From an uncultured Planctomycetaceae bacterium (GTDB taxonomy: Bacteria; Planctomycetota; Phycisphaerae; SM23-33), in NCBI GenBank assembly GCA_964417755.1, contig CAYQJH010000001.1, positions 1,921-65,920 of the forward strand: a stretch of DNA of 64,000 nt. Direction: 5' to 3'. The notes under the pieces are model-generated. The model did no database searches and was not told where the DNA came from. It was given only the letters and a program-made list of their open reading frames with translations. The first letter of the stretch is position 1, and each line of letters begins with the position of its first letter. Shown one piece after another: positions 42,451 through 44,092 of the stretch. A program made the translations under genes and the position numbers.

Positions 42451-43116
42451 ATGACCAAGCATTTGTCTGAAAGATCGACTGTGGCTGAGGTTGTTAACGG
42501 TAACGAGCAGGCTGTCAGCGATACTCAATTGCTCCAGCGTCACCTCGAGGGCGACCCCGCCGCCTTCGCCGCGCTTATCCGACGCTATCGCAAGGAGCTA
42601 TACAGCTTCCTCGTGCGGTTCATTGGCGATGCCGACCTGGCCGAGGATGTCTTCCAGGAGGCATTCCTGCAGTTGCACATCTCGGCTGCCACCTTCGACC
42701 CGCAGCGCCGGCTGAAGCCTTGGCTGTTTACCATCGCCGCCAACAAGGCCCGCGACGCCATGCGCAGCCGCTGGCGCAAGCAGGCAGCCCCGCTGGACGC
42801 CGCCGTCGCCGGCGCCAAGGAGGAACAAACCAGCTATGCCTCGCTGATGCCGTCGTCAATTCCGGCGCCGGATGACTCTTTGTTGAACCTTGAAACCCGC
42901 CAGGCCGTACAGAAGATAGTCGATCAGATGCCCGATAATCTGCGCATCGTGCTTCTGCTCAGCTATTTCCATGATTTTCCTTACAAGGATATCGCGCAAA
43001 TGTTGAACGTGCCTCTGGGCACCGTCAAATCCCGCCTCCACGCGGCTTTGAGGCATTTTGCAAAACAGTGGAAAGAAACAGTCGAGCGATCCGGCCATGG
43101 CAGAAAAAAGAGTTGA
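42451..43116 (+). CDS. ECF (sigma-24/sigma-70 family) RNA polymerase sigma factor
   Basis: Region 2 (YRKELYSFLVRFIGDADLAEDVFQEAFLQL) and region 4 (YKDIAQMLNVPLGTVKSRLHAA) are present. Confidence 0.85.
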   Translation: MTKHLSERSTVAEVVNGNEQAVSDTQLLQRHLEGDPAAFAALIRRYRKELYSFLVRFIGDADLAEDVFQEAFLQLHISAATFDPQRRLKPWLFTIAANKARDAMRSRWRKQAAPLDAAVAGAKEEQTSYASLMPSSIPAPDDSLLNLETRQAVQKIVDQMPDNLRIVLLLSYFHDFPYKDIAQMLNVPLGTVKSRLHAALRHFAKQWKETVERSGHGRKKS

Positions 43117-44092
43117 TGACGAAGCGTTGATGTTTGATCTGCTCCTGGGCGAATTGGACGAGACTCGGCAGAGCGAAGCTCGCCGCAAGATCGAGGAGGA
43201 CCCGCAAGCTTCCGCCCTGCATGCCGACGTATCCAACACGCTGGCTGCACTTGACCTGCTGGGCGAGGCTGAACCTCCGGAGGAGCTCGTCGACAAAACG
43301 CTTGCCCGCATACGCCAGGATCGCCAACTCAAGCAGCTCATCGCACGCCAGGAGGCCACACGCCGCCGGCCTATCGCACCGACATTCTCGCTGCGCGAGC
43401 TTGGCGCGGTGGCGGCGGCAGCCATCCTGATGGCCGTCATCTTCGTGCCGTCGATCCGCAGCGCTAGGCAGTCCATGTACCGCGGCGAGTGCGCCAGCAA
43501 TGCCGGGCAGATCGGGACGGCCTTGCGATCGTTCGCAGCCGCCGGCAACGGGCAGTTTCCGCGTGCCGACGGCCAATGCCGCTGGCTGCCCTGCTCATCA
43601 GAAGGCAGCACGAGCAATTCGGCCGCCCTGTTCCAACTCGTGCAGAACAGTTTCATCAAGCCTCCAGTATTCCAGTGCCCCGCCGTCGATGGCGGATCAT
43701 TCGTCCTTCGCCAAGGCATGCTCGATTTCCCCGCTCCAAAATACGTCAGCTATTCGTATCAGCACGCAGTCGGGCCGCAAGGGCTTTCGCTTTACGACCC
43801 AGCCTTCACCGGCAAGCATTCCCAGATGGCGATACTCGCTGATCGCTCGCCGGTCTTCCCCGACGGCAAGTTCCACGCCGAGCGCGTCAGCGCGCAGGCC
43901 AGCGACAACCACGGCGGCAGCGGGCAGAACGTGCTCTACATGGACGGCCACGTCGCATGGGCCTCCACGCCGACCGTCGGAATCGGCGGCAACAATATCT
44001 ATCTGATCAATGGCCTGACGCAGTATCGCGGCGACGAAAGCCCCTCCGAACCGACAGACTCGTTCCTTCTGCCAGCCTACAGCGGCAGGTAA
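43097..44092 (+). CDS. Putative anti-sigma factor: cytoplasmic N-domain, one transmembrane helix, extracytoplasmic DUF1559-like (planctomycete pseudopilin-type) domain
   Basis: Overlaps the sigma gene's 3' end. The transmembrane helix LGAVAAAAILMAVIFVP, followed by RSARQSMYRGECASNAGQIGTALRSFAAAGNGQFP, parallels the pilin LLVVIAI...[21 protein letters not shown]...FP segment. The C-terminal GGSGQNVLYMDGHVAWAS fits the DUF1559 xxFxDGHV motif. The start is uncertain (alternatives 43058 or 43097). Confidence 0.6.
   Translation: MAEKRVDDEALMFDLLLGELDETRQSEARRKIEEDPQASALHADVSNTLAALDLLGEAEPPEELVDKTLARIRQDRQLKQLIARQEATRRRPIAPTFSLRELGAVAAAAILMAVIFVPSIRSARQSMYRGECASNAGQIGTALRSFAAAGNGQFPRADGQCRWLPCSSEGSTSNSAALFQLVQNSFIKPPVFQCPAVDGGSFVLRQGMLDFPAPKYVSYSYQHAVGPQGLSLYDPAFTGKHSQMAILADRSPVFPDGKFHAERVSAQASDNHGGSGQNVLYMDGHVAWASTPTVGIGGNNIYLINGLTQYRGDESPSEPTDSFLLPAYSGR

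Follow-up and report, generated by a model that had tools for sequence, protein, structure and literature searches.

An extracytoplasmic function sigma factor gene of Planctomycetota coupled to a predicted anti-sigma factor with a membrane helix and an outer domain of DUF1559 pilin-like origin

We analyzed a 64,000-nt window of DNA from an uncultured Planctomycetaceae bacterium (lineage SM23-33; contig CAYQJH010000001.1, positions 1,921–65,920), and all coordinates given here are positions within this window. At 42451–44092, two genes lie on the same strand and overlap by 20 nt; the upstream gene encodes a sigma factor of the extracytoplasmic function (ECF) type and the downstream gene a predicted membrane-bound anti-sigma factor. 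A preliminary description of this DNA had proposed that the second gene overlaps the 3' end of the sigma gene and that its product consists of an N-terminal domain, one membrane helix, and an outer domain. Both the overlap and this layout were borne out, with residues 1–96 preceding a helix that begins at F97 and a globular part that extends to residue 331. The sigma gene is translationally coupled to the gene of this single-pass membrane protein, and the features of the pair are as follows.

42451–43116, plus strand: gene for an ECF (group 4) sigma-70 family sigma factor of 221 amino acids, from Pfam and TIGR02937 matches.
43097–44092, plus strand: gene for the anti-sigma factor, 331 amino acids plus the stop codon, from its homologues and the upstream sigma gene.
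43097–43384, plus strand: predicted cytoplasmic anti-sigma N-domain, residues 1–96, from NF052375, PRK13920, and the helices predicted by AlphaFold2.
43385–43456, plus strand: transmembrane helix, derived from the alpha1-N segment of a pilin, residues 97–120 (FSLRELGAVAAAAILMAVIFVPSI), from the hhalign register and position tables.
43457–44089, plus strand: extracytoplasmic DUF1559-type pilin-like domain (predicted), residues 121–331 (~210 amino acids), from hhalign, AlphaFold2, and fold matches.
43910–43954, plus strand: H-X10-DG motif block, H272 to V286 (HGGSGQNVLYMDGHV), from TIGR04294 (12.6 bits) and conservation.

The open reading frame of the second gene was listed from a TTG at 43058. 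However, because more than 120 full-length homologues (43–65% identity) align from the methionine encoded by the ATG at 43097, we take this ATG as the true start, which gives a protein of 331 amino acids; one 331-residue protein is 100% identical to it. Databases list the homologues as hypothetical proteins or under partial automatic names, among them "H-X9-DG protein," "anti-sigma factor RsiW," and "PulG."

By its domain content, the product of 42451–43116 is an ECF (group 4) sigma factor. The Pfam models Sigma70_r2 (7.9e-17) and Sigma70_r4_2 (1.4e-16) matched the protein, Sigma70_ECF was also present, and the TIGR02937 score was 97.7 bits against a cut-off of 42.9. Regions 2 and 4 were matched in the domain scans of the sigma protein, and region 3 was not, as expected of group 4 factors, which have just these two regions in ~200 residues. 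The closest solved structures are those of SigW (2.2e-30), AlgU (1.8e-25), and RpoE (2.4e-21).

The pairing between an ECF sigma factor and a DUF1559-type anti-sigma factor, which the preliminary description had suggested for this locus, is found well beyond it. A scan of one genome per species with a single peptide pattern returned 38 full-length relatives of the anti-sigma protein and 41 proteins that match only from residue ~97 onward; the 39 full-length loci referred to below are those of the 38 species genomes and one locus from a metagenome contig (L001). A sigma gene lies directly upstream and on the same strand at 39 of 39 full-length relatives, compared with 0 of the 41 prepilin-type relatives. 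The sigma factors encoded at these 39 loci are close homologues of the window sigma factor (E 1e-55 to 1e-105), the exception being one copy truncated at a contig end, and the sigma and anti-sigma genes overlap by 4–23 nt in 32 of the 39 pairs. An ECF sigma gene also precedes each of the three distant members (~30% identity) that were checked on metagenome contigs. Thus, the 20-nt overlap and the pairing in related loci both point to the co-transcribed anti-sigma gene expected beside an ECF sigma gene, and no conserved third gene was found across the window and the 39 related loci. The anti-sigma gene was present in one copy in each of the 38 species genomes matched with that single pattern. 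On a larger scale, an exhaustive profile search of 1.84 billion cluster representatives yielded 450 clusters at E ≤ 1e-30, so that the family comprises at least 450 clusters (50% identity), mostly of Phycisphaerae; the source labels of the homologues are nearly all metagenome-assembled genomes of Phycisphaerae or Planctomycetota. Nearly all of the best 150 clusters are full length at ~330 amino acids, and the 104,627 matches at E ≤ 1e-3 mirror the wider DUF1559 family.

The N-domain appears, by comparison with existing models, to belong to the anti-sigma-domain type. The NCBIfam model NF052375 ("anti-sigma factor") matches 42 of 42 family members, with a best E-value of 1.3e-14 but scores far below its 100-bit cut-off, and on the window protein it covers residues 14–117 at 4.5e-10. 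PRK13920 ("putative anti-sigmaE protein") matches 22 of the 42, also below the curated cut-off. Such matches below cut-off are as expected because the full-length architecture differs. Weak matches to Pfam zf-HC2 (4 of 42) and to DUF3379 (7 of 42) were also obtained, and a profile of the N-domain run against a set of 5.8 billion proteins gave a single, uninformative match. AlphaFold2, run on the family alignment, predicted helices at residues 2–16, 22–34, and 36–51, a low-confidence linker, and a helix at residues 62–90 (mean predicted local distance difference test (pLDDT) score, 84.5). In class I anti-sigma domains, which measure ~80–90 residues, a linker joins a three-helix bundle to a fourth helix (layout as given in PMC7406223), and the N-domain is predicted to have this three-plus-one layout. 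The Hx3Cx2C zinc motif is not conserved among the 42 members (C20 and H42 each occur in 26 of them), and ~44% of class I anti-sigma domains are without this motif (PMC7406223).

Residues 1–96 are conserved at the protein level from Met1 across the 42 aligned homologues, and codons 81–97 contain no ATG, GTG, or TTG; therefore, a short prepilin-type leader cannot be made from this gene. The possibility raised in the preliminary description that translation in truth starts downstream of the helix is thereby ruled out, the more so as NF052375 matches all 42 members.

The hydrophobic helix that follows begins at F97 and is predicted by AlphaFold2 to be part of a single 51-residue helix (residues 99–149). 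In the hhalign register, the prepilin motif itself opens the alignment, with PTFSLRE of the anti-sigma protein opposite GFTLVE of the prepilins. F+1, E+5, and P+22 of the pilins and an alpha1 helix of ~50 residues are all kept, with threonine in place of glycine at position −1. The preliminary description had noted that this segment aligns residue for residue with the helix of prepilin-type DUF1559 proteins; the similarity stands, but the homology had been made to start too late, its real start being the F+1/E+5 motif. We tabulated the positions, numbered as in pilins, in the close family (n = 42), in distant members (n = 48; 26–33% identical), and in the prepilin relatives, as follows.

Position −1: T in 36, M in 4, and V in 2 close members, G or A in none; G in 3 and A in 3 of the 48 distant members.
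Position +1: F invariant in the close family (F97); F in 14 of 48 distant members; F in prepilin relatives.
Position +4: R in close and in distant members; V or I in prepilin relatives.
Position +5: E invariant in the close family (E101); acidic (E or D) in 45 of the 48 distant members; E in prepilin relatives.
Position +8: A in 71% of close and 72% of distant members; V in prepilin relatives.
Position +10: A in 97% of close and 97% of distant members; I in prepilin relatives.
Position +11: A in 88% of close and 97% of distant members; T or A in prepilin relatives.
Position +22: P in 88% of close (P118) and 85% of distant members; P in 100% of prepilin relatives.
Alanine fraction, positions +6 to +21: 0.29 in close members, 0.23 in distant members, and 0.07 in prepilin relatives.

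In close and distant members alike, the helix has thus gained a near-invariant Arg (+4) and near-invariant Ala residues (+8, +10, +11), a set that may represent a degradation or packing motif. A prepilin (class III signal peptide) leader is absent: T, M, or V occupies −1 in 42 of 42 close members, 96 residues precede F+1, and the Pfam model N_methyl (PF07963) did not match the anti-sigma protein. With Gly −1 missing, cleavage and N-methylation by a prepilin peptidase and assembly into filaments are predicted not to occur. When the family profile was compared by sequence with the Protein Data Bank (PDB), the sole matches, none of them significant, were to type IV pilins, with the alignments starting at residue 1 of the pilin; the profile of the prepilin relatives retrieved the same pilins plus GspG at 4e-12 to 1e-9.

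The relationship to DUF1559 extends through the outer domain. An hhalign comparison of the family with N_methyl plus DUF1559 proteins gave a probability of 100 and an E-value of 1.2e-41 over 231 columns, spanning residues 95–328 of the window protein and positions 7–299 of the prepilin set, and BLASTP against a single prepilin-type member gave 4e-21. The homology was shown by way of relatives because direct scans with Pfam and NCBIfam models gave no significant match: the Pfam scan found no significant domain in the anti-sigma protein, DUF1559/SBP_bac_10 (PF07596) scored 6.7 bits against a gathering cut-off of 23.3, and among family members this model gave only weak matches, to 10 of the 42 close ones and 13 of the 48 distant ones. 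Likewise, TIGR04294 (HX9DG) scored 12.6 bits on the window protein, below its cut-off of 19; the spacing from His to DG is ten residues rather than nine, in the window protein and its sister prepilin proteins alike. The prepilin-type relatives start MKRKGFTLVELLVV. Of the six that were scanned, all but L060 exceed the Pfam gathering cut-offs of both N_methyl and SBP_bac_10/DUF1559, and L060 exceeds that of N_methyl alone; L043, L048, and L064 among the six represent the closest subfamily, with proteins of ~320 amino acids that end in DDSFLVP.

Conserved positions are consistent with this relationship. The motif GGSGQNVLYMDGHV lies at residues 273–286, where the preliminary description had pointed out a C-terminal GGxxNVLxxDGHV; H272, G276, and N278 are invariant in the family, Q277 is nearly so, and the motif is common to the prepilin relatives. 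The outer domain further contains the invariant cysteines C132 and C194, DFP, YSYQ, and a C-terminal DSFLLP, and the two groups share the cysteine pair, DFP, YSYQ, NH-x3-GQNVLYLDGHV, and a terminal DSFL(L/V)P. The AlphaFold2 model of residues 97–331 places a beta-sheet domain behind an N-terminal helix of 51 residues (pLDDT 94; predicted template modeling score (pTM) 0.90), and the three best fold matches of this model in the PDB are type IVb pilins (9iuf, E 8.6e-3; CofA, 0.52; TcpA, 3.3), which is weak but consistent support for a pilin fold. Overall, sequence comparison traces the membrane helix and the outer domain back to a prepilin-type DUF1559 ancestor, whose short prepilin leader was replaced by an anti-sigma domain of ~96 residues, with loss of Gly −1. 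The earlier suggestions of a DUF1559-like outer domain and of an exchanged leader are thus sustained, the former by the hhalign and BLASTP results (the Pfam model itself remaining below cut-off) and the latter by the homology register, the conservation of the N-domain, and the absence of Gly −1 among the 42 members.

We consider it reasonably probable that the pair forms a two-gene ECF module in which the membrane-bound anti-sigma factor holds the sigma factor, the DUF1559 outer domain serves as sensor, and release probably occurs by regulated proteolysis. The N-domain would sequester the sigma factor at the inner membrane face. The DUF1559 domain would act as the sensor and would face the periplasm, as pilins have an N-in/C-out topology and the anti-sigma domain has to lie in the cytoplasm. 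An outside signal, either a bound ligand or a damaged or unfolded domain, would then inactivate the anti-sigma factor, and the freed sigma factor would transcribe its regulon. The likeliest route of inactivation, by analogy with RsiW, RseA, and MucA, would be site-1 followed by site-2 intramembrane proteolysis. The anti-sigma factors of SigW, AlgU, and RpoE are all removed by regulated intramembrane proteolysis, and the membrane segments of RsiW and RseA are alanine-rich; we favor this route, purely by analogy, because the sigma factor is closest to SigW, AlgU, and RpoE and because the pilin helix has turned alanine-rich. The anti-sigma protein would remain in the membrane and would not assemble into filaments, because its cytoplasmic domain would block processing and extraction. 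Further, a housekeeping-type promoter (TTGNNN-N16–19-TATNAT after an A-rich tract, ≤160 nt upstream of the sigma gene) was found at 21 of 34 related loci compared with 1.0 expected from shuffling, which fits post-translational control. At L002, L009, L012, L019, L025, L036, and others, AAGAAAGAA is followed by TTGACC or TTGCCC, a spacer of 17–18 nt, and TATCAT or TATGAT, 40–110 nt before the sigma start.

Several results weigh against this model. A scan of the window for sigma-70-type promoters detected none, and a search for an ECF-type dyad upstream of the sigma gene, on both strands of 31 loci, gave nothing above shuffled controls. For the N-domain, all matches to anti-sigma models are under the curated cut-offs, the sequence profile had no match in the PDB, and Foldseek ranked the anti-sigma domains of RskA and RslA at the top without significance. 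Moreover, a plain ligand sensor does not account for the kept E+5 and P+22, two residues of importance in pilin-specific interactions.

The main rival of the proteolysis-sensor model is that the anti-sigma factor monitors the pilin pool or its machinery: the retained helix would dock in the membrane with DUF1559 pseudopilins or with the assembly platform of a type II secretion system or type IV pilus, and the sigma factor would report how large that pool is or what state the machinery is in, and not an external ligand. In its favor, an acidic residue at +5 (all 42 close and 45 of the 48 distant members) and P+22 (85–88%) are retained in a protein that cannot be a normal filament subunit, although an acidic residue following an arginine at the membrane boundary could serve topology alone. 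There are precedents for membrane pilin pools that signal via the conserved N-terminal helix, i.e. PilA-PilS (Kilmury and Burrows 2016, as cited in PMC6058289), PilA-PleC in Caulobacter (PMC7196804), and the minor pilins with FimS (PMC5979040), and N_methyl plus DUF1559 proteins are among the most expanded families of Planctomycetota, with at least 41 genes per genome (PMC8567305). However, no pilus or secretion genes were found in the vicinity of the pair, whether in the window or at related loci, and the conserved outer domain, with its many invariant polar residues, argues for a role of its own. We therefore regard this alternative as unlikely, if still worth weighing. Its fullest form, to which we give a similarly low chance, is that the anti-sigma factor is a pilin mimic among dozens of DUF1559 pseudopilins or at their assembly platform, where it would turn pool size, assembly, or retraction into ECF sigma activity; if true, this would be a signaling principle undescribed for ECF systems and would, for the first time, connect the largest paralogous family of planctomycetes with a function.

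Two further explanations fare worse than pool monitoring. The invariance of F+1 and E+5 in the close family and the exact register with the prepilin cleavage motif would suit a protein that is both regulator and processed pilin, with a prepilin peptidase cutting before F97 to free the cytoplasmic anti-sigma domain. Prepilin peptidases require Gly at −1 and tolerate Ala poorly. Because Gly is never present at −1 in the 42 close members, where Ala is likewise absent (each occurs in 3 of 48 distant members), because N_methyl finds no match, and because F+1 is lost in most distant members, such release is very improbable. Least credible of all is an annotation artefact, in which an ordinary prepilin-type DUF1559 protein has a miscalled start or carries an N-terminal extension that has nothing to do with the sigma factor. 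The failure of Pfam to find a domain and the naming of some homologues only as "H-X9-DG protein" or "PulG" would fit an artefact, but codons 81–97 offer no start, the N-domain is conserved from Met1 in more than 42 homologues and ~450 clusters, every member matches an anti-sigma model, the sigma gene is adjacent in 39 of 39 compared with 0 of 41 cases, and none of the 42 close members has Gly at −1. We give an artefact almost no weight.

The region upstream of the sigma gene contains a further feature, which the preliminary description had set directly before it.

42154–42320, no strand assigned: imperfect palindrome of 167 bp, in which a ~58-nt TTCGTCATT-rich unit occurs twice in inverted orientation, from its fold and repeat copies.

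Its two 74-nt arms show 70% complementarity, its RNA folds at −85.9 kcal/mol (z = −8.3), and a 9-mer of the palindrome occurs 10 times in the window compared with 0.37 expected. A third copy of the TTCGTCATT-rich ~58-nt unit lies at ~56205–56270, aligned in register and ~85% identical to the left arm. This copy is followed by an unrelated and very stable hairpin at 56278–56417 (−124 kcal/mol, z = −8.3) for which no Rfam match was found; both are intergenic and upstream of a GDP-mannose 4,6-dehydratase gene (56602–57630). Rfam and tRNA scans of the window found no RNA gene. The position of the palindrome 130 nt 5' of the sigma start, between divergently transcribed genes, its very stable fold, and the related repeat before the dehydratase gene would allow it to be an operator or an array of ECF promoters belonging to the module. 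However, no palindrome-like element precedes the sigma gene in 80 of 80 related loci, its repeat unit occurs elsewhere in the window, and no ECF-type dyad is conserved, all of which makes an operator improbable. We have therefore treated the palindrome as a putative dispersed repeat of this genome, outside the sigma/anti-sigma module; its existence as described is confirmed, whereas its place in the module is not.

The genes around the pair differ between the window and related loci. Divergent from the sigma gene, on the minus strand at 40879–42073, are a gene of the YgbA_NO family ("nitrous oxide-stimulated promoter") and a gene for a 269-residue 4Fe-4S dicluster protein. Directly 3' of the pair, at 44471–46799, are genes for an N-terminally extended acyl carrier protein, for a FabA-like dehydratase, and for a ketoacyl synthase, the last two overlapping, and a Peptidase_S49 gene (SppA-type signal peptide peptidase), which has no shown link to the module, lies ~10 kb downstream at 53893–54885. 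In 19 of the 39 loci, a heparinase II/III-like gene (DUF4962 plus Hepar_II_III_C; minus strand, ~1300–3300) is divergent from the sigma gene; these include L003–L007, L009, L012, L015, L019, and L021, and in L001 a GH42 glycosidase gene is found there instead. AroB and PyrD follow the pair in a subset of the related loci. The heparinase-like, AroB, and PyrD genes all lie outside the window, and we treated them as lineage synteny rather than as parts of the module; the heparinase-like neighbor could be synteny or could hint at a polysaccharide-related regulon. The genes next to members of the sister prepilin subfamily showed no informative pattern.

To our knowledge, N_methyl plus DUF1559 proteins have no known function. 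A conserved, single-copy relative tied to a transcription factor would thus offer a tractable read-out and a first regulatory handle on the DUF1559 family, and whatever activates this sigma factor would be a candidate for what the DUF1559 fold binds or partners with. To the study of ECF systems, the family would add a type of sensor that owes its membrane anchor as well as its outer domain to a pilin, and it provides a natural experiment on which residues of the pilin helix matter outside filament assembly. The family is too diverged for Pfam, and therefore domain-architecture surveys would miss it. Consistent with the statement in the preliminary description that no example was known, we found no paper in the searchable literature that joins DUF1559, pseudopilin, or H-X9-DG with an anti-sigma factor in this sense, although an earlier mention in the surveys of planctomycete ECF factors (Wiegand 2020, Jogler 2012) is not excluded; pilins go unmentioned in the main text of the ECF re-classification paper.

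Among known systems, the pair most resembles SigW-RsiW of Bacillus subtilis, RpoE-RseA of E. coli, and AlgU-MucA of Pseudomonas, which comprise the nearest solved homologues of the sigma factor and share the two-gene operon. RsiW, RseA, and MucA likewise have an N-terminal cytoplasmic anti-sigma domain, a single alanine-rich membrane helix, and an extracytoplasmic C-terminal domain. In contrast to them, the helix and outer domain described here are of pilin origin and unrelated to theirs, and there is no zinc motif. The planctomycete N_methyl plus DUF1559 (SBP_bac_10, H-X9-DG) proteins are homologous to the anti-sigma protein from F+1 to the C terminus. Unlike them, the anti-sigma protein lacks the short leader, Gly −1, and an N_methyl match and has a 96-residue anti-sigma domain ahead of the helix; its helix core carries R+4 and A+8/+10/+11; and, whereas those proteins number dozens per genome, it occurs once in each of the 38 species genomes matched, and its gene always stands by an ECF sigma gene.

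The involvement of the N-terminal helix of an inner-membrane pilin in signal transduction is shared with PilA-PilS, PilA-PleC, and the minor pilins with FimS, as set out in PMC6058289, PMC7196804, and PMC5979040. In those systems, however, a processed pilin acts on a separate histidine kinase, whereas here the pilin-like part is itself fused to the domain predicted to bind the transcription factor. ECF anti-sigma factors carry very diverse outer domains, and in the RsgI-SigI systems of cellulolytic clostridia, anti-sigma factors use an abundant extracellular module, the carbohydrate-binding module, as sensor. The present family is similar to RsgI in that its sensor would be borrowed from a module abundant in the organism, but the sigma family and the sensor fold are different, and the RsgI helix does not come from the borrowed module. 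Of added interest here is that a pilin helix was recycled as the membrane anchor, and that the donor family is large.

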